From an uncultured delta proteobacterium (GTDB lineage: Bacteria > Desulfobacterota > Desulfobacteria > Desulfobacterales > JAFDCJ01): a stretch of DNA of 64,000 nucleotides. The notes below the pieces were generated by a model. That model saw nothing but the letters and a program-made list of their open reading frames with translations, did no database searches and was not told the DNA's origin. Every line of letters starts with the position of its first letter. Position 1 is the first letter of the stretch. Made by a program: the position numbers and the translations under genes. The stretch spans positions 315,671-379,670 of the forward strand of contig CAVYNY010000009.1 of the NCBI GenBank assembly GCA_963769935.1, written 5' to 3'. This document shows positions 1,355 to 64,000 of this stretch, one piece after another.

Positions 1355-2611
1355 ATGATTAAACGAAAGTTGTTTTCAGAATTGGTGGGCCATCTTCCGC
1401 AAAAGGAGATGAGCCTGATAATCGGCCCCCGTCAGGCCGGCAAAACGACCCTGATGGAGATGTTGCAGGCACATCTGGAAAAGAGCGGTGAGCGCACGCT
1501 GTTTCTAAACCTCGACGTCGAGTGGGACAGACTTCATTTTGAATCTCAGGCAGCTCTTCTAAAAAAAATTGAATTGGAGCTGGGCCGACGGCGCGGTTAC
1601 GTTTTTATCGATGAAATTCAGCGCAAAGGTGATGCCGGTTTATTTTTAAAGGGCCTTTTTGATCTCAACTTGCCTTATAAATTTATCGTTTCCGGTTCCG
1701 GCAGCCTGGAGCTGAAAGAAAAAATCCATGAATCGATGGTCGGCCGCAAACGACTGTTTGAATTATCCACCCTGACCTTCGAGGAATTTATCAATCACCG
1801 AACGGACTATCGGTATGAAGAAAATATTGCCGAGTTTATGGCAATTGAAACGGACAATGCCCGGCAGCTGCTGTCTGAATACATGCAGTTCGGCGGGTAT
1901 CCCCGGATTGTTTTAGCTTTGGAACAAGTTGAAAAGCTTCGTCTCATCGATGAAATCTACCGCAGTGTCCTGGAAAAGGATATTGCCTATCTTTTAAAAC
2001 TTGACAAGCCTGATGTTTTCAGAGCGCTCATCAAGATTCTTGCCGGCCAGATCGGGCAGTTGATGAACTACACTGAGCTGGCATCGACATTGAATGTGTC
2101 TTTTGCCACTGTTAAAAACTACCTCTGGTATGCTCAAAAAATATTCATAGTGGAACTTATCCCACCCTATGCGCGCAATGTCAGAAAAGAAATCAGCAAA
2201 TCACCCGTGCCTTATTTTTGGGATTTGGGCCTCAGAAACTATTCCCTGGGACTGTTCGGACACCTTGAAAGCCCAATGGAAAAAGGGTTTGTCTTTGAAA
2301 ACCTGGTTTTTTTACTTTTAAGGCAAAAACTAAGATTCAAAGCCGCCAAGTTGAATTACTGGCGAACAAAGGATAAAGCCGAGGTGGATTTTGTGATCGA
2401 AGCCGGTAAAAGACTCATTCCGGTGGAGGTTAAGCATAAGCAGCTTAGACAGGATAAGGTGCCGGTATCCTTGCGCAGTTTCATCGACAAATACCAGCCG
2501 GAGCGAGCCTTTATTATAAATTTTGGTTTGAACAAAACCATTGAAATCAACCAGACAAAAGTTTGCTTTATGCCGTTTCATGAACTGCTGAGTCAAAGCA
2601 CGGTATTTTAA
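1355..2611 (+). CDS. AAA+ ATPase with DUF4143-type C-terminal domain
   Basis: Walker A GPRQAGKT, Walker B FIDEIQ, GGYP, YFWDLG, EVDFV..IPVEVK; TTGACT-N16-TAATAT ends 6 nt before the ATG. Confidence 0.85.
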   Translation: MIKRKLFSELVGHLPQKEMSLIIGPRQAGKTTLMEMLQAHLEKSGERTLFLNLDVEWDRLHFESQAALLKKIELELGRRRGYVFIDEIQRKGDAGLFLKGLFDLNLPYKFIVSGSGSLELKEKIHESMVGRKRLFELSTLTFEEFINHRTDYRYEENIAEFMAIETDNARQLLSEYMQFGGYPRIVLALEQVEKLRLIDEIYRSVLEKDIAYLLKLDKPDVFRALIKILAGQIGQLMNYTELASTLNVSFATVKNYLWYAQKIFIVELIPPYARNVRKEISKSPVPYFWDLGLRNYSLGLFGHLESPMEKGFVFENLVFLLLRQKLRFKAAKLNYWRTKDKAEVDFVIEAGKRLIPVEVKHKQLRQDKVPVSLRSFIDKYQPERAFIINFGLNKTIEINQTKVCFMPFHELLSQSTVF

Positions 2612-2878
2612 AGATCTCGACTTTAAACCGGCCCGCATCAAAGATCCGGTTGTCTGAGGTCCCTTTTTATGATGCACAAGGTTGATAAGGTCGTCGAGAA
2701 AGGTACCGAAAATTCCACCTACTAATGAATCACGCAAGCACCCCGGTGCCATTCTCTGGAGCTGCGCAGCTGGCAAAAATCCCAAAAAAAGACAGGATAA
2801 AATTCGTGCTTTATATATTTCGCGTTTTCGTGATAAAAAAAAATAGAAGATGTCCTTTCTTCTTAGGATCGCGATCAC

Positions 2879-4219
2879 TTGACCGGTAATGCGCCCCATA
2901 TTCTTCTGATCAATCCCTGGATCCACGATTTTGCCGCCTACGATTTCTGGGCCAAGCCTCTGGGACTGCTCATCATTGCAGGCCTGCTAAAGGCGCACGG
3001 CATTGCGGTTTCCTATATCGACTGTCTGGACCGTTTTCATCCCCGGGCCGCTAAAACCGATCCTGCGGCCAGATACGGCCGGGGTCCGTATCTTAAATCC
3101 CGCATCCCTAAACCGGCCGGGTTGGATGACGTCCGCCGTAAATTCTCACGCTACGGTATCAAACCGCAATGGTTCCAGGAAGATCTTCTTGGACTGGCCC
3201 CACCCGATCTTGTGCTGATCACCTCGCTGATGACATACTGGTACCCGGGGGTGCAGGAAACCATTGCAGCTGTCAGATCGGTTTTTCCGCATACGCCGAT
3301 CGTGCTGGGCGGCATCTATGCCCGATTATGCGCTGAGCATGCCGGAAGCAATTCCGGCGCCGATCATATCGCCGTCGAGCCGGCGGAAAAATGCTTAATG
3401 GCCCTGTTGTGTGACTTTACAGGCTACTCGGCCGCACCGGCATTTGATCCGTTAAATATGGATTCCTACCCCTACCCTGCCCTGGAATTGCAGACCAGGA
3501 TTAATTATGTACCCCTGCTGACCACCAAAGGCTGCCCGTTTAACTGTGCCTACTGCGCTTCCCGTTTTTTGGAGCCCAACCCCCTGCGGCGCAGTCCGGA
3601 ATCCGTTATTGAAGAGATCCGTTACTGGCACGGCCGGTATGGACTGATCGACTTTGTCCTGTACGACGACGCCTTTTTGGTGGATGCCGACCACCATGCC
3701 ATTCCGATGCTGGAAGGCATCTGCGCAGCCGGTCTCAAGGTTCGTTTTCACACGCCGAATGCGCTCCATATTCGCGGCATCACCCCCGCAACGGCCCGGC
3801 TGATGCACCGGGCCGGTTTTACGACCCTGCGTCTCGGATTGGAAACAGCTGAATTTGAACACCGCCTGAAACTTGATCAGAAAGTCTCTCAGCACGAGTT
3901 TAACCGAGCGGTGACCTGCCTGATCGAGGCCGGTTTTGACAAAAAACGGGTGGGCGCCTATCTGCTGGTCGGTCTTCCCGGCCAGAAACTAAGCGCTATT
4001 GAGTATTCCATCCGGGCCGTTTCAGAAAGCGGTATATCGCCGGTGCCCGCGTATTACACCCCCATTCCGCATACGGCGCTGTGGCCTGAGGCGGTAGCGG
4101 CATCCCGCTACGATCTTGCTTCCGATCCGATATTCACCAATAACGCCATCCTCCCCTGCCGCAAAGAACCGTTTTCCTGGGAACTGATTTCGCATTTAAA
4201 GGATTTGGCGGCGAAATAA
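2879..4219 (+). CDS. B12-binding radical SAM protein
   Basis: CxxxCxxC motif (GCPFNCAYC), N-terminal cobalamin-binding-like segment (PLGL, IVLGGIYA). Confidence 0.85.
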   Translation: MTGNAPHILLINPWIHDFAAYDFWAKPLGLLIIAGLLKAHGIAVSYIDCLDRFHPRAAKTDPAARYGRGPYLKSRIPKPAGLDDVRRKFSRYGIKPQWFQEDLLGLAPPDLVLITSLMTYWYPGVQETIAAVRSVFPHTPIVLGGIYARLCAEHAGSNSGADHIAVEPAEKCLMALLCDFTGYSAAPAFDPLNMDSYPYPALELQTRINYVPLLTTKGCPFNCAYCASRFLEPNPLRRSPESVIEEIRYWHGRYGLIDFVLYDDAFLVDADHHAIPMLEGICAAGLKVRFHTPNALHIRGITPATARLMHRAGFTTLRLGLETAEFEHRLKLDQKVSQHEFNRAVTCLIEAGFDKKRVGAYLLVGLPGQKLSAIEYSIRAVSESGISPVPAYYTPIPHTALWPEAVAASRYDLASDPIFTNNAILPCRKEPFSWELISHLKDLAAK

Positions 4220-45293: not shown

Positions 45294-46130
45294 GGGGTCG
45301 CATCTCAAATATTAAGTATTTTCCTTCTGATTCGATCCTCCCGCCCCTTAAGCTTTCGATCCGCCTCAAGTTTTTTCGCGATCCGGTCATGCCGTGCCGC
45401 GATTCCAGCTCCGGAGATGTCGAACCGTCTGCCCAAGGCGACACCGGTTTCTCCCGTCAATTCCCTGCAAAGATAAATCGCCACATCCCGGGCTAAATTC
45501 CTCTTTTTCCCTTTTTGTAGGATGCTTTCTATCCCGCAACCGAATTCGTCGGAAACCGCTTCAATAAGATCATCGGGCGTTGGGCGGGGTTTCAGGATTT
45601 TCAGTTGCGGGATCTCCTTGCTGTTCGATTCCTTGCTTAAAAATGTCTTCTTCACCCAGTTTACGAAATCGACTCGCCCCAAAACAACACCGCCCACGAC
45701 GTCATCGGACGGATTCTCAATCTTTATGTTTTCGACCGACTCGACAAAATCACGGTATCCTTTTTTCGCGGTGTTCCTGTCCTCTCCGAACAGCGACAGT
45801 AACCAGTCCGTCTCCAGCCATTCCGGAGACTCAACATAGCCGCTTAAAGCCCGGTAGCTGCTCCATGGATAGTCTCTGCAATGTTCAACCATCCTCGCCC
45901 GCACCGGATTCAGATGGATATATCGCGACAGGTGCTTTAAATATTCATCCGCGTCCACCAGCACGGCTTTGAAGCGCCCTTGGAACAGATGACCGAAGCG
46001 TCTTCGTTTGCGATTGAAATACACCGAATAACCGACGTTGATCCATTTGATCGCCTGACTCAGGTTCGCATGCGGAGTTTCTATCAAAAAGTGATAATGC
46101 GTGCTCATCAGGCAAAAGGTATGGGCGATT
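45294..46130 (-). mobile_element. 5'-truncated Y1/HUH (RAYT-like) transposase with DnaA-like C-terminal HTH and its GACCCC end
   Basis: CLMSTHYHFL, GHLFQGRFKA, RYIHLNP, YPWSSY, ARDVAIYLCRE; stop followed by GATGCGACCCC|TAT. Confidence 0.85.
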
Positions 46131-46164
46131 TGGATCTTTGATTGTTTTGTCTTTAGAAATATTC

Positions 46165-46355
46165 TGCTCAGTATGTAATTTATCAAAATCTTCTTGAAAA
46201 ATTGCTTTATCTTCATTTTGCCTGATGAATTCAGCAACGCCTGATTTCTCGAGCGCCTCTTTAAGAACCGGTGTTTTTGTAAATTTGCGTTGCACTGCAC
46301 GGGCAGCACACCATACTGAGAAATTGTGTCGATGTTGGAAATGAGAATAATTCAT
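46165..46355 (-). pseudogene. 3'-truncated cassette gene (hypothetical)
   Basis: MNYSHFQHRHNFSVWCAARAVQR.. starts just after an attC, then fuses to the transposase fragment. Confidence 0.55.
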
Positions 46356-46732
46356 TTATTTGCCATATCGCTGCTCTTCAGAAGGCGCGTTTTTTTGCGA
46401 TCCGCTGGAAAAGCTTGTTGGGCCGTTGAGATATTGGCTTGAACGGCTTCTGCATGCAATTTTAAACCAAGTGCGCGCATAACTTTAAGTATTGTGTCAA
46501 AACCAGGGCTTCGTTCCCCAGACAGTGCCTTGTAAAGACTCTCGCGCGATAAGCCGGCATCACGCGCCACTTGTGACATACCTTTAGCCCGGGCTATATC
46601 TCCAAGAGCTTTTGCAATAAAAGCAGCGTCACCTTGCGCTTCCTCAAAACAGGCTTCAAGATAAGCGGCCATTTCCTCCGGGTTGCGAAGGTGTTCGGCG
46701 ACGTCATACTTAGTCGTGATAGTCTTAGCCAT
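46352..46732 (-). CDS. Addiction-module antitoxin (HI1420-like HTH)
   Basis: ALGDIARAKGMSQVARDAGLSRESLYKALSGERSP; ORF reads through the attC. Confidence 0.9.
   Translation of the reverse strand: MAKTITTKYDVAEHLRNPEEMAAYLEACFEEAQGDAAFIAKALGDIARAKGMSQVARDAGLSRESLYKALSGERSPGFDTILKVMRALGLKLHAEAVQANISTAQQAFPADRKKTRLLKSSDMANK
46363..46423 (-). repeat. attC site (R' mutated GTT>GAT)
   Basis: GCCCAAC aagcttttccagcgg...cttctgaagagcagc GATATGG. Confidence 0.7.
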
Positions 46733-46741
46733 GATACACTC

Positions 46742-47032
46742 CTATATATTCCTTGCGAGACGTAGGGCGGTTTTTATATCCTTGGCTTGCGTATTTTTGT
46801 CGCCGCCAGCCAGCAAAATTACCACCTTTTGTCCTTGTTTTTTAAAATACACCCGATATCCAGGTCCATAATCAATCCGCAATTCTGAAACGCCTTCACC
46901 AACCGGCTTCACATCTCCAGGATTTCCAGCTGCCAATCTTTCTATCCGCACAAGGATTCGAGCACGTGCGCGGATGTCATGCAACCCATCAAGCCATTTA
47001 GCGAAAATTTCTGTCTTGCGAATTTCAATCAT
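46742..47032 (-). CDS. Addiction-module toxin (HI1419-like, RelE superfamily)
   Basis: GNPGDVKPVGEGVSELRIDYGPGYRVYF, LLAGGDK. Confidence 0.9.
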   Translation of the reverse strand: MIEIRKTEIFAKWLDGLHDIRARARILVRIERLAAGNPGDVKPVGEGVSELRIDYGPGYRVYFKKQGQKVVILLAGGDKNTQAKDIKTALRLARNI

Positions 47033-47038
47033 GATAGT

Positions 47039-47067
47039 ATTGTAGCCATACGGCTACATAATGTCAA
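47039..47067 (-). promoter_or_regulatory. TA promoter with operator
   Basis: TTGACA-N17-TACAAT overlapping the TGTAGCC-N4-GGCTACA palindrome. Confidence 0.8.
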
Positions 47068-47089
47068 TGGGGATTTTCATGCATATTGA

Positions 47090-47194
47090 AGCCAACGTTT
47101 GGCGTGAGCAGCGGCCCAAATAAATACCAAGCTTGCACGGCATTTACGAAAATCCTCGATTTTCACGCCGTCTGCTCCAGTCGCATGGTTATAA
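47090..47194 (-). repeat. attC site
   Basis: TTATAAC...tggagcagacggc...gccgctgctcacgccaaac GTTGGCT. Confidence 0.85.
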
Positions 47195-47207
47195 CCGAAC
47201 TGGTGGT

Positions 47208-47522
47208 TTAGGCCGCATTAGAACTAAGAACCTGCACCTCTTTTTCAAGACGCTCTGCAAGGAGATCCTCCGTTACTTCAAGGTCAAATCGGTTTTGGAG
47301 ATTTAGCCAAAATTGAGGTGGCATTCCAAAGAAACGCCCTAAACGCAAGGCTGTATCCGCTGAGATGGACCGTTTCCCATGAACAATCTCGTTAATGCGT
47401 CTTGGAGGCACACTTATATCTTTGGCAAGTCTATATTGACTAATACCCATTGGGTTAAGAAATTCCTCAATAAGAATTTCTCCAGGATGAATGGGAGGTA
47501 GTTTTTTATTTTTCATGATCAT
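47208..47522 (-). CDS. higA: HigA antitoxin
   Basis: PIHPGEIL, RINEIVHGKRSISADTALRL, FWLNLQ. Confidence 0.93.
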   Translation of the reverse strand: MIMKNKKLPPIHPGEILIEEFLNPMGISQYRLAKDISVPPRRINEIVHGKRSISADTALRLGRFFGMPPQFWLNLQNRFDLEVTEDLLAERLEKEVQVLSSNAA

Positions 47523-47525
47523 CTC

Positions 47526-47807
47526 CTAAAGATAATCTGCAATTTCAACATCATACGCATCACCGGTTTCCCATTTGAAACAAATTCTCCACTGATCGTT
47601 TATGCGAATGCTATGTTGACCTTTTCGGTCTCCTTTTAATGCTTCCAATCTGTTTCCAGGTGGAACGCGCAATGTATTTAGTTCGGTAGCTGCATCCAAA
47701 ATAACCAATTTCCTGCGCGCAAGATGCTGAATATTTTCCGGTAATTTTTTGGAAAGAATTCTATTAAAGATTTTTTCAGTTTCTTTACCCCGGAAGTTTT
47801 TTATCAT
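47526..47807 (-). CDS. higB: HigB toxin
   Basis: PPGNRLEALKGDRKGQHSIRINDQWRICF. Confidence 0.93.
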   Translation of the reverse strand: MIKNFRGKETEKIFNRILSKKLPENIQHLARRKLVILDAATELNTLRVPPGNRLEALKGDRKGQHSIRINDQWRICFKWETGDAYDVEIADYL

Positions 47808-51177: not shown

Positions 51178-51239
51178 GGCTAACGCTACGGCTGAGAGGC
51201 GCGAGGTAACGAGCGTCCGACTCCAGCCGATTGATACTT
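51178..51239 (-). repeat. attC site (R'' degenerate)
   Basis: ..aatcggctggagtcggacgctcg...cgcgcctctcagccgtagc GTTAGCC. Confidence 0.75.
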
Positions 51240-51261
51240 AAAGCATCACCTTCATTACGGT

Positions 51262-51690
51262 TTAATCGTATGCTGGATAATTTGTATCTGGGATGTGTGA
51301 ATGTTCTATAATTTTCCATTCACCATCGACTTTTTGCACCAAATACCAAAATTTTGTCTTCGGGTTCTTTTTTGCCGGATGTCTCATTTTCACCTCGACA
51401 ATTAGTTCCACGGCATCCTTTTCAATGGCAAGTCCGGAATATGAGGTTGTTCCGGCTCTGTCCGTATTGGTTGAACGAATAATACTGTATTCAATCCACC
51501 AATTTTCTAGACTTCCCTCAAATCCTATAGGATAAAAGCATTTAGATAAAACGTCTCGATCACCATAATTTTCGAAATACGTTTTCAGCGTGTTTTCAGG
51601 TGATGAAAAGTCCACCAAAGGCTGAGCGCTTGCAATACTAAACTGAACAATTGCAAGGCATAGCGATAATATGAATAGGTTTGCCTTCAT
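51262..51690 (-). CDS. Exported hypothetical protein, NTF2-like (cassette)
   Basis: Signal peptide from MKANLF; SPENTLKTYF and WYLVQKVDGEWKII are typical of NTF2-like small proteins. Confidence 0.65.
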   Translation of the reverse strand: MKANLFILSLCLAIVQFSIASAQPLVDFSSPENTLKTYFENYGDRDVLSKCFYPIGFEGSLENWWIEYSIIRSTNTDRAGTTSYSGLAIEKDAVELIVEVKMRHPAKKNPKTKFWYLVQKVDGEWKIIEHSHIPDTNYPAYD

Positions 51691-51699
51691 ATAATTGAA

Positions 51700-51952
51700 A
51701 CATAACGCCGCCTTCACCAGTTCATCTGGTGAAAGGCGTGGTTGGGAATTTTGGTCAATAAACTCAAACAGGTTATCGCTATAAACAAAACGAGCTGTGA
51801 AGAATGAAGGCCTACCCCCTTTTTCCAGGCCTTAGACAGATGATTGCTTAAACCGCTCTTTTTAAGTCCAAAAATATCGCTCTAAGACCAAAAAATGGCC
51901 ATATTTTTGACCTAAACCCGCATCAAATAAGCATCCAGTTTGGTCCGACCCC
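51700..51952 (-). repeat. 253-bp non-coding module, copy 1 (GGGGTCGGACC end + 48-bp attC at 51700..51747)
   Basis: Ungapped match to 59713..59965. Confidence 0.9.
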
Positions 51953-52069
51953 TAATCGACAATCCAGAAAGAAAGCCGAACGCATGATTCATGGGCACCC
52001 CTCCGGGCCGGCTCCTATTGCGGCACCTCCGCTCGGCATGGATGCAGGCGCCTTTTCGCTGTTATTTCG

Positions 52070-53422
52070 TTACTTCACCACCGTGGCGATTTTCGACCGT
52101 ACGGGAATGTTCACGGAATTCAGCCCAGGCGTCTGGCCGTGCAGGTCGAACTTGAGCTTCACCTGAGGCCGGAAGATCAGGCAGTGCGTGGAGCCGCCGA
52201 AATGGAACATGCCGAGTTGATCGCCTTTGCTCACACGTTGCCCCACTGACACAGTAATTTCGTTCGAGGAAACCTCCGCCATGCCTACGAAGAGGACCGC
52301 CATCAGGCCGATGTCCGGATTGTCCGCTTCGATGAAGATCAACGCCCTGCTCGCAACCTGGGTTATGTATCCCTGCGACTCGTTGGGCCCCGCCGGATCG
52401 AACCCCACCGACAAAGCTTCGGCATAGTACGATCCGTCGATCAGCCGGGTCTTCACGATCCTTCCGCTGACCGGACTGTGCCAGCGGTGGTAGCTCAAAG
52501 CACTGAGAAAGGCCTGATAAATCGTACCGCCTTCGAATTGCCCGATAAGGGGATCACCAGCCAGCATGTGGTAAAGTGAGTAAGGTTGTGATTTGATCCA
52601 GAATGTGTCGCTCCCCTTCACGTCCCTGGCGAGCCGGTAGGGAGCCGACTCGCAGGCGTTGGCAATGACCGCTTCGTCCATGGGGGAGGCCACCGGCCGT
52701 CGGCCTTTCCGGAACCGGCGAGTGAAAAAGTCATCCCAGGAGGTGAATCCGTAGTAGGGCTTTTCCGGATCGCACTGAAAATCCTCGACGAAGGTCGGCA
52801 TCGCTTTTTTCGCGTCCCGGCCGAACCATCCGGTTTCGGGATTGTCATTCAGGACGTATCGAGACTCTTTCGACTTTAGGAACTCGCCCCATTGATCCAG
52901 AATCTTTTTTATCTGGCTGTTCACCTTTGGATTCAGGAAAACGGTCGTCCCTGCCGGAGTCGCCATGGGCCAGTTGATGATGGCATTAATGGGAAACCCG
53001 ACCAGACCCGTCTGGTTGAATTCAGGGGCCTTGGTCATGATCTGGTTGATGAGCTGCAGCATGAGCCGGTAGTCCCTGATCTGGGGCCGGCCGGTGGGGT
53101 CTTTGCGGTACTCGGGGGTGTTGCTGGGAACCTGCTCGAACATTTGAGTAAAGAGCATGAGGAGCTCCGGGTCGCTTTCGATAAGGTTCTTGAACTCCTG
53201 AACGACAAGCGCCAGGGGCTGGGCTTTGTCATTGGTTTCCAGGACGAGGTCTTTAACCCATTGATTCAGGACTTGCTGATCGGAGGGCTGCCACTGGCCG
53301 ACCTGGTAGGGAACCGGCTTTTCGGTTGCATGAGGGCTTAACTGCTGCGCCGCCGCACAACAAAAAACTGACAGGTGCAGGAGTGCAACACTTAGTAAGA
53401 TCTTCTTCAATATACTCGACAT
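52070..53422 (-). CDS. Phosphatidylserine decarboxylase family protein with signal peptide
   Basis: DFFTR, SYHRWHSPV, GMAEVSS, FHFGGST autocleavage motif. Confidence 0.9.
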   Translation of the reverse strand: MSSILKKILLSVALLHLSVFCCAAAQQLSPHATEKPVPYQVGQWQPSDQQVLNQWVKDLVLETNDKAQPLALVVQEFKNLIESDPELLMLFTQMFEQVPSNTPEYRKDPTGRPQIRDYRLMLQLINQIMTKAPEFNQTGLVGFPINAIINWPMATPAGTTVFLNPKVNSQIKKILDQWGEFLKSKESRYVLNDNPETGWFGRDAKKAMPTFVEDFQCDPEKPYYGFTSWDDFFTRRFRKGRRPVASPMDEAVIANACESAPYRLARDVKGSDTFWIKSQPYSLYHMLAGDPLIGQFEGGTIYQAFLSALSYHRWHSPVSGRIVKTRLIDGSYYAEALSVGFDPAGPNESQGYITQVASRALIFIEADNPDIGLMAVLFVGMAEVSSNEITVSVGQRVSKGDQLGMFHFGGSTHCLIFRPQVKLKFDLHGQTPGLNSVNIPVRSKIATVVK

Positions 53423-54263: not shown

Positions 54264-55301
54264 TTAAGGGACGTTCCTCGGATTTTCGGATTTGTTCTCT
54301 TCCAGGAGATTCCATCCGTGCTCTTCGACTATTTTCCGTCCTCTCATCGCGGATTCGCTCGCCGTCGAGGCTGCGATGTTCAGTCTTTTCGATATCGAAA
54401 CCGCGCTCAGCCCGAGTTCTCGGGTCCCCCAATAACATAGCACACTTCGAGCCTGTACCATTTTTCGTTGCTTTCCGCCAGTCAATAACTCCTTGAAAGT
54501 AAGACCGAATAAACCAAGCACGCGATCCACCAACCAGTCAAAGTCGTACCCCAATTCTCGGATTCTATACTTTCGATCTAAATTCTCTTGAGCAGCCTTT
54601 AATACGGTCTCGACGAAATCCCCCTGGCCAAGGATGCGTTCATCACCTTTCATCCTGCTCTCATCGTTGCGCATGGCCCTCAATGCGGACCACCCTCCGG
54701 CGCTTCTCACCAACCCACCTCCCGTCAACTCGGGCCGGCGTCCCGCCGCAACCCCCTTCTTTACAAACTCAAGATAAAGCCTGCGGGCTTCCGGGACCTT
54801 CTTTCCAAAAAGATTAAGGATATAATCAACATCCTGAAAGCGAGGCTCGTTCTTTCCCATCAAAACGCAATGTCCGCAGTAAGGGTATTTATTTAACATT
54901 TTTATATCCTTCACGATTCTGGCTCGCAAGGGATTCAAGTGAATATAGCGCACCAGTTCCAACAGGTATGGATCTTCTTGACATAATACGGACTTGTATC
55001 GATTCTGGAACAAGTGACCATGGCGACGATGACGCCGATTGAAACTCACTGCATATCCGGTCAAAAGTTTACGCATTACCGTGGCAATAGGGGCGGTACC
55101 TGTCCTCAATAATAAGTGGAGGTGATTTGTCATAAACGCCCATGCAAAACAGGGCGTCTGACTGTCCGACAGGATATCGCCAAGTCGATCTAAAAAATCA
55201 TCACGATCGGGATCATCAAAAAAAATCTTTCTTCGATTAATCCCCCTCACGATGATATGGTGCAAGGCTCCAGGAGCATCTATACGGGCTTTTCTTGGCA
55301 T
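54264..55301 (-). CDS. Y1/HUH transposase (RAYT-like) with C-terminal DnaA-like HTH
   Basis: LHHIIVRG, HUH in MTNHLHLL, GHLFQNRYKS, LVRYIHLNP, ARSVLCYWGTRELG. Confidence 0.92.
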   Translation of the reverse strand: MPRKARIDAPGALHHIIVRGINRRKIFFDDPDRDDFLDRLGDILSDSQTPCFAWAFMTNHLHLLLRTGTAPIATVMRKLLTGYAVSFNRRHRRHGHLFQNRYKSVLCQEDPYLLELVRYIHLNPLRARIVKDIKMLNKYPYCGHCVLMGKNEPRFQDVDYILNLFGKKVPEARRLYLEFVKKGVAAGRRPELTGGGLVRSAGGWSALRAMRNDESRMKGDERILGQGDFVETVLKAAQENLDRKYRIRELGYDFDWLVDRVLGLFGLTFKELLTGGKQRKMVQARSVLCYWGTRELGLSAVSISKRLNIAASTASESAMRGRKIVEEHGWNLLEENKSENPRNVP

Positions 55302-58391: not shown

Positions 58392-58522
58392 TCCTAACGG
58401 TTGAGTTGTGGGGCCGGGAAGCAATGAATTAGTGAAATTAAAAATGGCACATAATTGGTATCAACCACGACTTTGAAAAAAGCCACGGTTTTTCCCGGAC
58501 CCACACCAGCGAATTGTTGGGC
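58392..58522 (-). repeat. attC site
   Basis: GCCCAAC aattcgctggtgtgggtccgggaa...ttcccggccccacaactcaacc GTTAGGA. Confidence 0.9.
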
Positions 58523-58530
58523 AACCCTAC

Positions 58531-59686
58531 TTACCCAGCCTTGGACGACGCTTCGTCGCCGCATATGATACCCGCTGCCTCGATCAGCTGGACCCATTCG
58601 TCGCTGACCTTTCTGGCTTCCAACATCACCATCAATCCCTGCCGTAGTCGCCTCAAAACAGGCCGGAGGTCTCGCGACATTTTCTCGATAGGCGCGATGG
58701 CATCAATCATCCCTTTAGCAGATCCGAGCCCCTCACGAGAAGCTGCAGACATGGTTCGAATTGCCTCGAAGAATTCACACACTCCCGCCTTCGCTTCGGG
58801 CTCGCGCTCGATCTCGGACGCGGCATGCTCGATTATGGTACGGAATCCCAGGTCAACTTCGTGGAGCTGTGATGCGAATTCGTTACCGAAGGATCGGATA
58901 CGCTCGACCGGGTCAGTTAGATGACGGGCAACTCCCCTAGCGAACGACCAGTCGTGCAGCAAATCCCTTACCTTGGTTCTCGCGACCCTGGATGTCCGCC
59001 GTGGCCTCCTGCATTGTCTGTCCGATCAGTTCGATATCCTTTCCAATCGCGGTGATCGTCTCGACAAGCCTCGGAAGCGCGTCTTCCGCCGCAGCAATTC
59101 GATCAATGAACCCAGGTGATTCATCCGCGCCTTCGGAACCACCCTCCTCGACTTCCAGGACACGGGCAGCGATATCGACACCTTCAACCTGTCGATTAGC
59201 CTCAACTATCCTCGCCGCTAGCCGCGCTACGGCCTTCCGATAGTTTCCCGACGAGGTCTCTTCAAACCGCAGCTCGCGCCAGTCGTCCCACTGGAACGCC
59301 TGGACAACTGCCAGTAGATCGTCCTGCGGAGATTCGTCGTGAAGGCCGGCCACATCAAGGTAGAGCAATGGGAGCACGAGCTCCTTGATTCCAAGATTTG
59401 TTGCCTTTCTGGAGAAAAACTGCAGTTCCCTACGACATTCAGGGCTCATGAAGTACCTGGGCGTCAGCACTGGTATGAAGAAAGCAACTGAAGCAAGGCT
59501 GGAGTCGATTTTGTCCTTCCAATTGTCGCCCCATTTGATCGCGTCCTGGTCCAGAAATAGTTCGAGGGCTTCACCCGTTAGCATCTCAAATTGGCCCTTT
59601 ACGTCTTTTGCCAGTCTTGAGATTCGGCCGCCTTCGGCCTCGTCATCGGCGTGGACGTAAGACCAGAATCCTTGTAAAGTCGCCAT
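58531..59686 (-). CDS. TIR-domain protein with helical C-terminal domain (cassette; frameshift near 58945)
   Basis: GFWSYVHAD, LFLD..IKWGDNW, FFIPVLTPRYFMSPECRRE; two collinear ORFs fill one cassette. Confidence 0.85.
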
Positions 59687-59712
59687 AGAACTTCTCTGAC
59701 TTTCGTGGGTCA

Positions 59713-59965
59713 GCCCAACGCCGCCTTCACCAGTTCATCTGGTGAAAGGCGTGGTTGGGAATTTTGGTCAATAAGCTCAAGCAGGTTATCGCTATAAACA
59801 AAACAAGCTGTGAAGGATGAAGACCTACCCCCTTTTTCCAGGCTTTAGCCAGATGATTACTTAAACAGCTATTTTTAAGTCCAAAAACATCGCTCTAAGA
59901 CCAAAAAACGGCCCTATTTTTGACCTAAACCCTCATCAAATAAGAATAGAGCTTGGTCCGACCCC
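59713..59965 (-). repeat. 253-bp non-coding module, copy 2 (GGGGTCGGACC end + 48-bp attC at 59713..59760)
   Basis: Ungapped match to 51700..51952. Confidence 0.9.
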
Positions 59966-60119
59966 GAATCACACTGCTGGTAAAGACCGAACATTTCCGA
60001 CGATCTGAGCAAACAACTGGTCACCACTGATTGCGGATCCTTGAGACTCTGTTTGTACAAGAGCAATTCTCGAACCACAGCGGACTATTTGATCCAACAC
60101 TGTCTAAGCGCCTAACGGA

Positions 60120-61865
60120 CTATAGGTTCAGAGCTTCTATGTTGTCGACTCCGAACCAGTCGCCGACCGTCTGCATGGCCGCGGCGGAAAGCTCTTGTGT
60201 AAAGAGAACGGCCAGACGCCTCTTCGGCCTCGAACAGGTGACGTAGAAGAGATTCCGATTGCGCTCGAAGGCGGCTTCTTTGTTGGCAGGAATCTGTGCG
60301 CCCTGTCCCGCCAATTCGAGCATCTCGTTGAAGTTATACCTGTTCCAGCCTCTGCCGACGACGACGAGGACGTTCTCGAACTCGGCACCCTTGACGCCGT
60401 GCTTCGTCTCGAACGGAGAATGGCCCGACAGGTAGCGGCACAGGGCGACGATTTCCCGGTACGAAACGGCCCGGAGGTCGCCGAGCTCCTTCAGCGCTCG
60501 CGGCATGTCCTCGCCGGCCTCCGGGTCGAACTCCCGCAATTCGCGTTCGCGCCGCTCGACGGCATCGGGAACCCTCGGCCGGCGCACCGCAAGCAAATGA
60601 TCCACCACGTCGCCGACCGTCGCGCTGGCTCTCAACTCGATGAGCCTGTCCATGGCCTCGGACCATTTCTTCTTGTCGGCCTGAGCGCGGATCGCCGGCA
60701 CGTTGGAACCGAGTGCACGGAACATCTCCCCGTACTTCTTGGAGAGGTAAGCCTCACAGGCCGGCTCCAGAGCGTCGGCGAAATAGGCGATATGCGGATG
60801 CTCCTTGTTCGTGAAGGACTCGTTGAACGCGAAGACCGTCGGAATGCTGGGATATCCCTGCTTGCCGGCAAGCACGCGATGGGTGAGCATCAAGATCTTG
60901 GTGGTCTCGGGAGACAGATCCCAGCCGTCTTCGCCAAGACGATCGAGGACGGTCTGAAGCGCCCGGTCTGCGGCTTCGGTAGGAAGGTCTCCGCCCCAGT
61001 GGCCGCCGGTCTGACGGGCACCTGTCCAAGTGTTCGTATGAAAGATGCGGATGCTGCCCTGTTCGTTCGGATCGACGACGAATTGAGGCAGTTCGGGCCT
61101 CATGCGGTTCAGGCATTCGACGACCGTCGAAACCGACCGGAAGTTCGCCTGCTTGCCGACGACCGTCAGGCTTGGATGCTCGATCTTTCCGCATCCGTCG
61201 CCATAGATTTTCTGCCAGTGGTCGCCGAAGAAGCCGAATTGTGGCGATCCCTCCTGTCCGAGGAAGTGGGTCTTGATCGAGTCGATCCAGTCGGCGTTGG
61301 TGTCCTGATACTCGTCGATCAATATGATCGGGTACTTGTCCGCCAGGATGCGCCTGAACTTGGCGTTGTCCATGAGAGCGATAGTCAGGATAAGAACGTC
61401 GTCGTGATGGATGGAGACACGACGGTCGTTGATGCTTCTGTGCCCAAGCTCGTACTCGACGGCACGCTCGCCGAGGTCGCCGACTTCGGCGATCCTGTCG
61501 GGCCAGTGCTGGAGCTGCGGCAGCCGTTCCCGGAGTTGTCTTTGGAAACCGCTGATGAGCGACCAGCAGAATGCGTGGATCGTATTGCAATAGATGAGCG
61601 GGCTCCGGTCGGTCCGGGCGTCGATCTCGTCCTTCGCCACGTTGGTGAAGGTGATGCACGCGATCTTCTGATGCCGCTGCGGCAGAATGTGCTCGTAGCG
61701 GTCCATGAGGAAGTGGAGCGCCTTGACGAGCGTGTAGGTCTTTCCGGCGCCAGCGCCGGCTTCGACGAGGAAGCTCTCTTTGCGCTCAAGGCAGCCATAC
61801 ACCTCAGCGAGGGCTTTTTGGCTGGCCTCTTCGGCCGGGTTCAATTGTTCCACGACCTCAGCCAT
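60120..61865 (-). CDS. gajB: UvrD-like helicase, Gabija GajB
   Basis: AGAGAGKT, ITFTN, LIDEYQD, FGDHWQKIY, NFRS, TKHGVKGAEF, FYVTCSR; start overlaps the gajA stop. Confidence 0.85.
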   Translation of the reverse strand: MAEVVEQLNPAEEASQKALAEVYGCLERKESFLVEAGAGAGKTYTLVKALHFLMDRYEHILPQRHQKIACITFTNVAKDEIDARTDRSPLIYCNTIHAFCWSLISGFQRQLRERLPQLQHWPDRIAEVGDLGERAVEYELGHRSINDRRVSIHHDDVLILTIALMDNAKFRRILADKYPIILIDEYQDTNADWIDSIKTHFLGQEGSPQFGFFGDHWQKIYGDGCGKIEHPSLTVVGKQANFRSVSTVVECLNRMRPELPQFVVDPNEQGSIRIFHTNTWTGARQTGGHWGGDLPTEAADRALQTVLDRLGEDGWDLSPETTKILMLTHRVLAGKQGYPSIPTVFAFNESFTNKEHPHIAYFADALEPACEAYLSKKYGEMFRALGSNVPAIRAQADKKKWSEAMDRLIELRASATVGDVVDHLLAVRRPRVPDAVERRERELREFDPEAGEDMPRALKELGDLRAVSYREIVALCRYLSGHSPFETKHGVKGAEFENVLVVVGRGWNRYNFNEMLELAGQGAQIPANKEAAFERNRNLFYVTCSRPKRRLAVLFTQELSAAAMQTVGDWFGVDNIEALNL

Positions 61866-63910
61866 CTTGAGCCACCGCTGCTTCGGGGGCGTCGGCGGCG
61901 GCTGCCTGGACGATCGCCGCGTCCGCATCAGGAATGCCGCCAGCCGCCAGCCATCTCAATCCGTCGAGGATATAGCCGGGCGCGGTCCAGCCAGTTTCGT
62001 CGATAGCGTATTTGAGGGCGAATTGGGACTTCTTGATCTTGTCGAGCTTGTCCCATGCGCACTGGGCCTGCTCTTCGGGCGTGGCGCCTTCGATACCGAA
62101 CATCGCCGGATTCGCCAGCATGAACGCGTCCTCGAAGGTGCGGCCGCACGGACCGCCTTCGGCCTCGGGCCGTTGAAAGGCGATGCGCCGGAGTTCCTTG
62201 ACCTTGGCCGCGTCGTCTTTCGCCAGAAGGGCCTCGGGCGAGCAGTCGCCATCTCCGAACCAAGTGTTGAGACAGGCGTTGCTCGTGGCCGTTCCCTCAT
62301 GCACCGGACAGGCGGCCCCGCCGGCGGCAGACGACGGAGTCGAGGTCCGTGATGATGAGGGTCCGCAGCTCCAGAAAGTCGAGAAGGTCGAAGAATATGT
62401 GCGCGTAGGCGCCACCGACTTCCATGGTCGTCATGTACTGGCTGGACAGCTTGGGCGCGTCGGGCTCGGCCTCCTCCAGCTTTTCGATGATCACTGGCAA
62501 CAGCAGGCGCTCGCTGGTGCCTTCGATCAATATGGCCTTGTCGGCGAAGAACAGGTCGCAGCGAGTCAGCGTCAGATACTGGTGGAGAAACCTTCTGTGG
62601 TCTTCCGGCGTTTCGCGCAGCCCCTCGCGCAGGTCCTTGATCTCGGTCTGGCGAACGCCACCGGCGGCGGTCGGGAGGAAATACCGGATCGCCTCGAAGC
62701 CGGCGGCGTTGGCGACGTGGGAGGAGTGCGTCGATACGATGAACTGGACCGGCCAGGGCAAGGGAGCGCCCTCCTGGTCGCTGAGCTGTTGAGCGATCTT
62801 CGATACCTGGCGGATGAACACTTCCTGCATCTGGGGATGCAGGTGGGCCTCGGGTTCCTCGATGAACACGAGGTGGACGCCGGGAGCGTTCGGTTCCGCG
62901 CGGAAAGTGCGATAGAAACTGACGATCCGAAGCAGGATGAAGATGAGATTGCGTATTCCGAGGCCGGTATAGGATTCCGGCAGCAGGATTCCGTGATGGC
63001 CCGCGTATCTCACCTTGGTGTGGCGTGAAAGGAGGCGTTCCACGTCGAGCGTCGTCTCCGTCTCCAACTCGGAACCGTCGAGGCCGGGATAGCCGAACGT
63101 GCGCAAGGTCGGCATCAGCTTCCGCAGCTCGTCTTTGAAGCCGCCCTCGATCGTTTGCTGAATGTCGCGCACGGCCTCTTGCAAAGCTTGAGCGATGGCT
63201 TGGTCGGCCTGATCGGCGGTCGGCGATTTCGCGGCGGTGAAGAGACCTTCCAGGATTTTGGCCAGAACGTCGGTGTCTCTCGACGTGTCGTCGTCGAGCC
63301 CGCGTTGGGCGTTCACGAAACCCGTCTTCAGGAGTGACCGGAGCGCACTCACGGTCATCTGCTTGCGGTTGGTAGCGTCGTTAGGGTCTTCGGCCCATAT
63401 GCTGGCGACGAAGAGAGCGGGCACGCGCTCGCGGAGCAGTTGGAAGAAGGCGAGCCGGTCCTCGTCGGTCAGGTCGCCGGCCGGCTGATCGGCGAACAGC
63501 GACTCGATGGCGCCGTCGCGCAACTCGTAGCGCGCCACGACGAGCGCTTCGTTGCAGTCGGGGTCGAGGTCGATGACGAAGTCGCTGAGAGGGCCAAGCT
63601 CGGGCTGTTCGGGATCGTATCGGAACAGGAGTCGCAGCTCGATGCTCGGAATCAGAGCGCGAACCTCATCGTCTTGCCGGCCCGCGTTCTTGGCCTTGAG
63701 CGCTTCGCAAAAGCCGTCATATGAGGCGTTCGAGAAGTCTTCGATCTGGAATTTCGGGTTCTGATCTACGAGAAACCGGCGGATGGCCTCCGAAAGCGAT
63801 GTCTTGCCGCTGTTGTTGCGGCCGACGACGAGAGTCGTTTGGTCTTCCAGCACCAACTCCACGTCGGCCAGAAGCCGGAAGTTTCTGACCGTGACTTTGT
63901 GGATGTGCAT
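61858..63910 (-). CDS. gajA: OLD-family ABC-ATPase/TOPRIM nuclease, Gabija GajA (frameshift near 62330)
   Basis: GRNNSGKT, IEEPEAHLHP, STHSSH, LFFADKAILIEG..E, ITDLD. Confidence 0.88.
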
Positions 63911-63942
63911 GTTGGTCCCTTACGATCAGTTAAGATTTTGCC

Positions 63943-64000
63943 ACATAACGTTTCCGGGTGAGGTGCGGCCCTCGATCCATAGCGAACCAAAAGCCTATAC
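63943..64000 (-). repeat. attC site, 3' part (continues beyond window)
   Basis: ..gggccgcacctcacccggaaac GTTATGT, 32 bp before the gajA ATG; same style as other attC 3' arms. Confidence 0.7.

Follow-up and report, generated by a model that had tools for sequence, protein, structure and literature searches.

The 48-bp hairpin which occurs twice in the window (the whole 64,000-nt stretch of DNA that was analysed) is best read as an attC site that would be recombined by an integron integrase and would also spread, as a module capped by transposase terminal repeats, behind unrelated genes; we put the probability of this combined reading at about 0.6. The first part of it, that the hairpin is a working minimal attC, is very probable from the comparative sequence evidence.

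Fold, length and family of the 48-bp site

59713..59760 (minus strand): 48-bp attC, copy A, with R'' TCCCAAC, a 5-nt spacer, L'' bulged at 16, A at position 23 (T on the bottom strand), a 9-nt centre, L', spacer and R' G|TTGGGC
51700..51747 (minus strand): 48-bp attC, copy B, the same as copy A up to GTT and then ATGT

The minus strand of copy A is letter for letter the sequence quoted in the first-pass annotation. The exact 43-nt core was found again in copy B at 51704-51746 (0 matches in 100 shuffles), and there are two exact copies of the site in the window and four copies in the whole genome. Comparison of the two window copies confirmed that they are identical up to GTT and diverge only beyond it, as had been claimed. 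The DNA upstream of them is also alike over about 205 bp (alignment of 254 nt at 92.5%), and this shared stretch was overlooked earlier together with the transposase end-repeat module. The genomic copy on contig C11 has a different bulged base, and its following R'' matches as well. The copy on contig C20 has lost the bulge and the GTT and is probably dead.

The R'' and R' boxes, the 5-nt spacers and the bulged L''/L' stem described earlier were all recovered from the letters of the strand. A fold of -18.6 kcal/mol is predicted for the bottom strand (z -5.95), none of 200 shuffles being equally good; in it the R box is followed by a spacer without pairs and by an L stem that has a single bulged base and ends in a loop of 5 nt. 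The R'' and R' boxes with AAC and GTT can pair, and R'' TCCC is off RYYY at its first base. The extrahelical base is present on the R''-L'' arm of the L''/L' stem and is A on the bottom strand in the window site, where it stands inside an A run, so that its position is ambiguous (pair probabilities 0.66 and 0.33).

With 48 bp and 9 nt between the L boxes, the site has no apical stem and is indeed shorter than the natural range, which is given as 57-141 bp in passages of four papers (PMC3053210, PMC5027507, PMC5737091, PMC12901181) and as 55-141 bp, the L boxes being 14-102 nt apart, in a passage of another (PMC7370490). The range is descriptive, these passages show no mechanistic requirement for it, and the sub-range length is a variant feature. 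Assembly collapse of a longer attC, which the first-pass annotation had raised, is excluded by public metagenome contigs (four runs, two studies) that span the 48-bp site gap-free and by 110 other distinct sites. At 59717, where GTT ends, several of these contigs start or come loose from the window sequence; window regions without contig cover were given no weight.

For the family search, a 40-nt pattern with 23 fixed bases was used. It matched 23 GTDB loci (0.02 expected, by arithmetic), 22 with deltaproteobacterial titles and one from Verrucomicrobiota, and 112 metagenome stretches, 80 with long flanks and 32 with about 300 nt. Merging of identical 25-nt flanks gave 113 distinct sites and 77 cores; the counts of shared-upstream pairs and of repeat orientation refer to the first 90 sites, and the other family counts to 113. 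By these comparisons the 48-bp hairpin is a member of a conserved putative attC family of fixed length and not an accident. The family is patchy, since a variable-loop pattern was found in 6 of 401 genomes of a phylum sample, this draft genome included. The family pattern had no match in viral contigs, and Rfam gave none within positions 41000-64000 of the window. Longer attC of 57-73 bp carry the same L box, and to judge from that box the short site is this longer attC type minus the apical stem. Six other attC-like hairpins of 48-51 bp have different L boxes (L038, L045, L072, L110, L114, L126), so that very short attC are not confined to one family. No natural attC of 48 bp was found in the open-access literature; the supplementary attC lists of IntegronFinder and HattCI may hold some, and short sites may sit unremarked in published attC tables.

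Covariation was scored only at the positions left free by the search pattern. The sites are related and come from one pattern, and therefore the following counts and shuffles overstate independence and significance. Watson-Crick pairs (offsets from AAC) were present at 16:24 in 70 of 77 cores (35.3 shuffled), at 7:32 in 70 (52.4 shuffled), at 6:33 in 68 (48.5 shuffled) and at the loop-closing 19:22 in 73 (60.7 shuffled), and in each case 0 of 2000 shuffles reached the observed value. The spacer pairs 3:36, 4:35 and 5:34 did not covary above shuffle, as is expected of an unpaired spacer. The first bulge on the bottom strand is A in 58 of the 77 cores, C in 15 and G in 3. Position 23 is also retained: six pairs beyond the first bulge the bottom strand has a T, in the loop or at its foot, a conservation that is preset because the search pattern fixes this position. 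Here the fold program, which does not model one pair with a 2-nt loop, draws a plain 5-nt loop. Loops of 2 nt can form in DNA, and the covariation at 19:22 (T-A in 66 of 77 cores, C-G in 7) suggests a single closing pair, so that T23 may be an extrahelical base, followed by that pair and a loop of 2 nt. The single extrahelical base reported earlier is thus right as regards the bulge at 16 and incomplete, as T23 is kept and the loop-closing bases covary.

These results bear on the view that the hairpin is an inactive deletion relic of a longer attC, its junctions being older than the deletion or produced by homologous recombination. Such a relic would agree with a length below the 55/57-141 bp quoted in passages of PMC3053210, PMC7370490 and PMC12901181, with decayed arrays and the failure to find a full-length IntI in this genome, and with the dead copy on C20. 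We consider it very improbable, because the length stays the same, and stem pairs covary, across several families of bacteria, breakpoints fall at GTT behind identical short sites, and six sites with unrelated L boxes reach 48-51 bp too.

The earlier suggestion that standard models may miss the site is doubtful. A proxy covariance model, made from 24 ordinary sites of 59-74 bp with hand-set structure (two training sites share the L box), gave both copies 31.6 bits with an E of about 4e-6; 7 other natural attC matches in the window scored lower. The default minimum attC size of IntegronFinder is 40 bp. Only the central region of 14-102 nt stated for HattCI in the passage of PMC7370490 would exclude a 9-nt centre.

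Cassettes and junctions at G|TT

58392..59716 (minus strand): cassette behind copy A, with a TIR_2-domain ORF at 58937-59686 and an overlapping ORF at 58531-58962
58392-58522 (minus strand): 131-bp attC at the end of the TIR cassette, with R'' GCCCAAC at 58516-58522
51178..51703 (minus strand): cassette behind copy B, with ORF 51262-51717 (no Pfam match) and a damaged attC without R''
60120..63975 (minus strand): Gabija, with gajA split into 62297-63910 and 61928-62263, and gajB at 60120-61928
52070..53422 (minus strand): phosphatidylserine decarboxylase (PSD) gene upstream of copy B
51975-52067: weak attC-like remnant after the PSD gene, followed by the outer terminal repeat
45305-46309: Y1_Tnp and Bac_DnaA_C ORF

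It had been claimed that GTTGGGC complements the R'' GCCCAAC of the following cassette and is a footprint of real recombination. The complement was found for copy A (58516-58522) and fails for copy B, whose next attC (51178-51239, 17.7 bits in the covariance model) has no R''. Furthermore, a match between R' and the next R'' shows only that the downstream unit is a cassette, and as proof of recombination the single footprint counts for little. The functional minimal attC proposed with it nevertheless appears well supported, by the comparative evidence and not by this argument.

Among 16 pairs of sites with 150 nt of upstream DNA in common, 14 differ downstream, and in 11 of these 14 identity ends 0-1 nt past GTT. 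The R'' of the next attC is the exact complement of R' in 11 of 17 sites, the count being limited to sites where the detector found a following attC (permutation mean 1.5, 0 of 10000 reaching the observed value). Three loci, L089, L139 and L164, have the upstream gene and the 48-bp site in common. L089 is the empty allele, and L139 and L164 each carry one different cassette with a 60-bp attC between the 48-bp site and the sequence that follows GTT in L089. The ends in this comparison share about 7 nt, which is too short for a chimeric join to be a likely source of these alleles; any integron route to them takes the 48-bp site as partner. Taken together, these comparisons make recombination at the G|TT of the 48-bp site well supported. 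In L089, L139, L164 and L144, small cassettes with 48- or 60-bp attC adjoin a phage-like integrase ORF (388 aa in L089, by eye), and the array near this ORF is possibly virus- or satellite-borne.

In addition, 23 sites have R'' of the ordinary type and no repeat, with a stop codon in or beside R'' in several of them. In L201 the 48-bp site lies mid-array about 6.5 kb from a full-length intI, and the following R'' matches. The intI of that locus (1664-3300) is co-oriented with its cassettes and has an attI-like G|TT just downstream of the gene; L048 has a similar arrangement after an intI fragment. An exact R'' at the gene end was present in only 14 of 67 sites with at least 900 nt downstream, which indicates that many arrays are decayed. 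A permutation model, in which downstream cassette ends are cut at R'', was unsupported (7 full and 7 unfolded attC among 14), and several of the 'unfolded' attC of that test look complete by eye. A palindromic non-coding stretch from GGCGACTGCGTCGCC was seen after the G|TT of different attC (L095, L096, L124, L145, L103, L067, L115), and in L103 it makes an ORF-less unit with the 48-bp site at its end.

Full-length IntI was not found in the 41 contigs of this draft genome (best 164 bits against a cut-off of 265). The intI of this genome is present in broken pieces only, and at 64000 the contig ends within the array. IntI above the cut-off was found in 7 of 9 other carrier genomes tested. For the sites of this genome, IntI would be supplied in trans or encoded in an assembly gap.

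The 3.8-kb Gabija defence system upstream of copy A looks like a cassette: at the contig end, the 3' arm of an attC and G|TTATGT (63943-63949) stand before its start. No native attC or expected R'' was found after gajB, so that copy A serves as the de facto attC of Gabija. The gajA gene (61928-63910, minus strand) is split into ORFs of 537 and 111 aa (profile about 680), and gajB is intact-looking. In the TIR cassette, two overlapping ORFs in different frames, the TIR_2 ORF of 249 aa and one of 143 aa (58531-59686, minus strand), are possibly one frameshifted gene. At 45305-47807 (minus strand) there are two toxin-antitoxin cassettes (HigBA, Gp49/HI1420) and the Y1_Tnp and Bac_DnaA_C transposase ORF, the 5' end of which is apparently fused to or truncated by cassette sequence. 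In L121, the stretch 2292-663 nt before the site holds a gene for a prismane/hybrid-cluster protein of 543 aa; this gene has a 63-bp attC before it and a near-matching R'' at its end, and may be a cassette gene.

The repeat module upstream of the site

59761..59837 (minus strand): inner or core module, made up of a conserved spacer and a terminal repeat of the TIRYT type, which lies at about 59808-59837 and points to the attC
59838..59965 (minus strand): outer part, consisting of the other terminal repeat, GGGGTCGGACCAAG, and of what is left, in inverted orientation, of the 3' end of a MARAKRHYIPG-type TIRYT element
51748..51952 (minus strand): leader of copy B with the same two layers; homology to copy A ends at the outer terminal repeat
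54264..55301 (minus strand): gene for a Y1 transposase of the TIRYT type, flanked by its own terminal repeats, which are of another kind (GGGGACGTTCC type)

Both window copies terminate a 249-bp non-coding repeat (59717-59965 and 51704-51952), which is capped in two layers by terminal repeats of the TIRYT (Y1 transposase) type. The inner repeat starts about 75 nt before the site; repeat and spacer are common to 8 other loci, mostly without the outer layer. The outer layer, from GGGGTCGGACCAA onwards, is similar to the 3' end, in inverted orientation, of a Y1 transposase element of this genome, with alignment scores of 71.5 against the TIRYT 3' end on C20 (shuffle maximum 48.5) and 50.5 against that on C11 (shuffle maximum 43); a stretch of C35 was also tried and gave no match (27.5). 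Passages of PMC3733652 and PMC6006769 give GGGGWSAS as the consensus of TIRYT terminal inverted repeats. The terminal repeats of the family fit this type, as do those flanking the Y1 loci of L187 and of this genome, and the window's own repeats deviate from the consensus by 1-2 bases. In L187 the same repeat type stands just before the start of a TIRYT-like gene (by eye). No cognate TIRYT with the inner repeat was found among the 11 Y1 matches of this genome, and the plasmid collection gave no match to the 128-nt module.

An inward-reading repeat was found upstream of 50 of 90 sites, mostly at 45-49 or 73-77 nt, and an inverted repeat within 110 nt upstream at none of the 90. Downstream matches to the inverted repeat are weak or belong to separate mini-elements. 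The repeat stands before 60 of the 113 short sites, compared with 2 of 41 ordinary attC of the same loci and 0 of 53 in this genome. For T1, the commonest repeat type in the family, 40 modules have 38 distinct left flanks, and conservation extends only 12 nt to the left of the repeat core. In 40 of 42 cases the nearest upstream gene is co-oriented. Upstream genes, with 50 of the 61 listed ORFs scanned, are of cassette type (Mrr, RhuM, Fic, PemK) and metabolic (peptidase M3, EamA, CCG Fe-S, DUF4125). From these patterns the module likely spreads behind unrelated genes and supplies them with an attC.

The T1 repeat also bounds two-ended mini-elements, which carry no attC hairpin, and in L121 a T1 mini-element interrupts an attC of which the sister locus L081 has the intact form. 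In L068 the module begins within the expected R''. Ten repeat-linked sites have a further site upstream of them, and no more than 4 of these still show, close to the repeat, the R'' that the cassette in between should have, so that insertion into an attC is not the rule. In L086, DUF4125 and the module stand behind an apparent operon partner, which we take to be DUF4037, and in L036 and L063 only the tail of the partner gene is present. This arrangement would fit the capture of a chromosomal gene and also a plain deletion. A non-coding repeat of about 300 nt from GTT was seen upstream of the DUF4125 module (L036) and right behind the 48-bp site (L131, L044, L097). Elsewhere (G431:C2:1845052-1869306), four T3-type repeats in one orientation lie within 25 kb, each followed by GTGA-rich simple repeats and no attC.

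Searches for a complete element gave negative results. No element with two repeats enclosing an attC was found among 90 sites or among 23 repeat matches in 10 genomes, and no two-ended or palindromic attC-centred element in 251 genomes of one order (3 with a match); the same searches returned no 'right half' of a repeat-attC element. A pre-insertion allele was found neither for the PSD 3' end (0 of 22 relatives) nor for the DUF4125 end (0 of 37 relatives).

In the proposed mechanism, the bottom strand would fold, as predicted, into the R box, the unpaired spacer, the L box with the bulge at 16, six pairs and T23 at the foot of the 5-nt loop. IntI would cut at G|TT and, as the junctions suggest, excise cassettes behind the site or insert them there as whole units. 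An inward TIRYT repeat precedes more than half of the sites at a constant spacing, its left edge being sharp and the left flanks unrelated. The module may be joined to gene ends, often in or near an older attC, by a TIRYT (HUH) reaction at the outer end of the repeat, and the joined module would then act as a replacement attC and as a landing site for further cassettes. The partner repeat would be lost when IntI reshuffles the DNA behind G|TT, and this is the least secure step.

The same attC could work without the module being mobile, a reading that we regard as unlikely. The module would arrive at the 3' end of an IntI-mobile cassette, and one-ended deletions from the outer end of the repeat would remove the cassette body and create varied left flanks. 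The missing two-ended element and empty site favour this course of events, and so do the repeats which pile up upstream in one orientation (window copies, L049, L068, L124, L201), a strand bias that agrees with array orientation, and upstream native attC, which in some loci are whole and separated from the repeat by a short stub (L045, L090, L179) and in others are cut (L068, L121). However, an intact parent cassette is absent among the 113 sites, several copies per genome stand behind different genes (L068, L081/L121, L090, G425), and the modules of DUF4125, peptidase M3, EamA and CCG Fe-S have no attC detected upstream in the examined DNA. Transposase joining with later loss of the partner is preferred over cassette arrival with one-ended deletion.

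An attI or array head was suspected first and then rejected, as sites lie mid-array and copy A stands behind the Gabija cassette. In the corresponding rival, the hairpin would be a double-stranded attI-like array head with the repeat as its promoter, and no folded single strand would recombine. Different DNA behind G|TT at a common upstream locus (L036/L063/L086), an R'' fixed as YYCC-AAC and not matched to the cassette start, and TTGACA often within the repeat are in line with it. It is quite improbable in view of the compensatory changes and the kept bulge (palindromic and covarying), ordinary cassette-end placement within the same family, and the mid-array sites, copy A after Gabija included. 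In addition, intI directly adjoins none of the 113 sites, three loci having a match 1.4-2.6 kb off, and no cassette-facing promoter was found inside the leader: the two promoter matches in 59600-60200 lie upstream in the gajB end and on the opposite strand.

The tight linkage to TIRYT repeats, together with the recognition of hairpins by HUH enzymes (a passage of PMC8266576), also raises the question of whether the hairpin is the attC-mimicking right end of a TIRYT element, so that the transposase and not IntI makes the G|TT junction. This is scarcely probable, because a cassette with matching R'' is often found behind G|TT, 23 sites of the ordinary type have neither repeat nor YYCC R'', the L box is that of the longer attC, and the hairpin is missing from the two-ended mini-elements that have the same repeat.

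Relation to known systems and meaning

The 48-bp site resembles short attC of mobile integrons, of the attCaadA7 type (T-N6-G), as presented in passages of Bouvier 2009 (PMC2727003), Larouche and Roy 2011 (PMC3053210) and Nivina 2016 (PMC5027507), in its AAC/GTT with crossover at G|TT, its 5-nt spacers (2 paired and 3 unpaired), the bulge at 16 and T23 six pairs on. Unlike that type, it has no stem past 23 (at most one pair and a 2-nt loop), the first bulge of the family is mostly bottom-strand A, and R'' is usually YYCC-AAC. In the passages cited, T-N6 spacing is described as most efficient (PMC3053210), a change of the bulge G16 to A is tolerated at small cost, and R' remains the place of recombination when the two T bulges are absent (both PMC2727003). 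The apical GC stem and the region of the second bulge raise efficiency in the tested sites (passages of PMC5737091 and PMC7439510), and the activity of the 48-bp site is therefore perhaps low or modest.

As in TIRtrons or TIRYT elements, described in passages of Di Nocera 2013 (PMC3733652) and of Quentin 2018 (TnpA-REP subclass 2.1, PMC6006769), the repeats are near GGGGWSAS, and the same repeats surround Y1 transposase genes and two-ended mini-elements in these genomes. Here, unlike in those elements, a single repeat without partner is fused to an attC at a fixed distance. Integrons are unmentioned in the passages of these two papers, and the word 'integron' has 0 matches in PMC6006769. A fusion of TIRYT repeats to attC was not found in the open-access literature. 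In the IS1111-attC elements and group IIC-attC introns, a coding element is inserted into an attC. With these systems and with delta-attI cassettes, as presented in part of PMC12901181, the module has in common that mobile ends meet attC and that a foreign recombination site replaces the cassette's own attC; delta-attI cassettes leave an attI fragment, whereas the module brings a complete short attC of its own. SALINs and CALINs formed by cassette insertion at attG (a passage of Loot et al., 10.1101/2022.09.11.507474) likewise have attC, single or in clusters, away from an integrase, but the left edge of the module is a transposase repeat, not a GWT crossover, and the module is ORF-less.

A bolder reading, which we offer tentatively and hold to be possible rather than probable, is that the TIRYT repeat with the minimal attC, about 100-125 bp, is a mobile attC donor. 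An HUH transposase would plant it behind chromosomal genes, IntI would capture those genes as new cassettes, and integrase-less arrays would be seeded in this way. If true, this would provide a DNA-based route to the creation of gene cassettes. With a working 48-bp site, the lower size limit of natural attC would move from the 55-57 bp quoted in the cited passages to 48 bp. The apical stem, which is thought to help IntI load against SSB, would then be dispensable, and the stemless 48-bp attC would offer a design rule for synthetic sites. Overall, the module would link two single-strand DNA systems, HUH transposase and IntI, and it is a testable candidate for how genes acquire an attC and for the origin of integrase-less attC sites.
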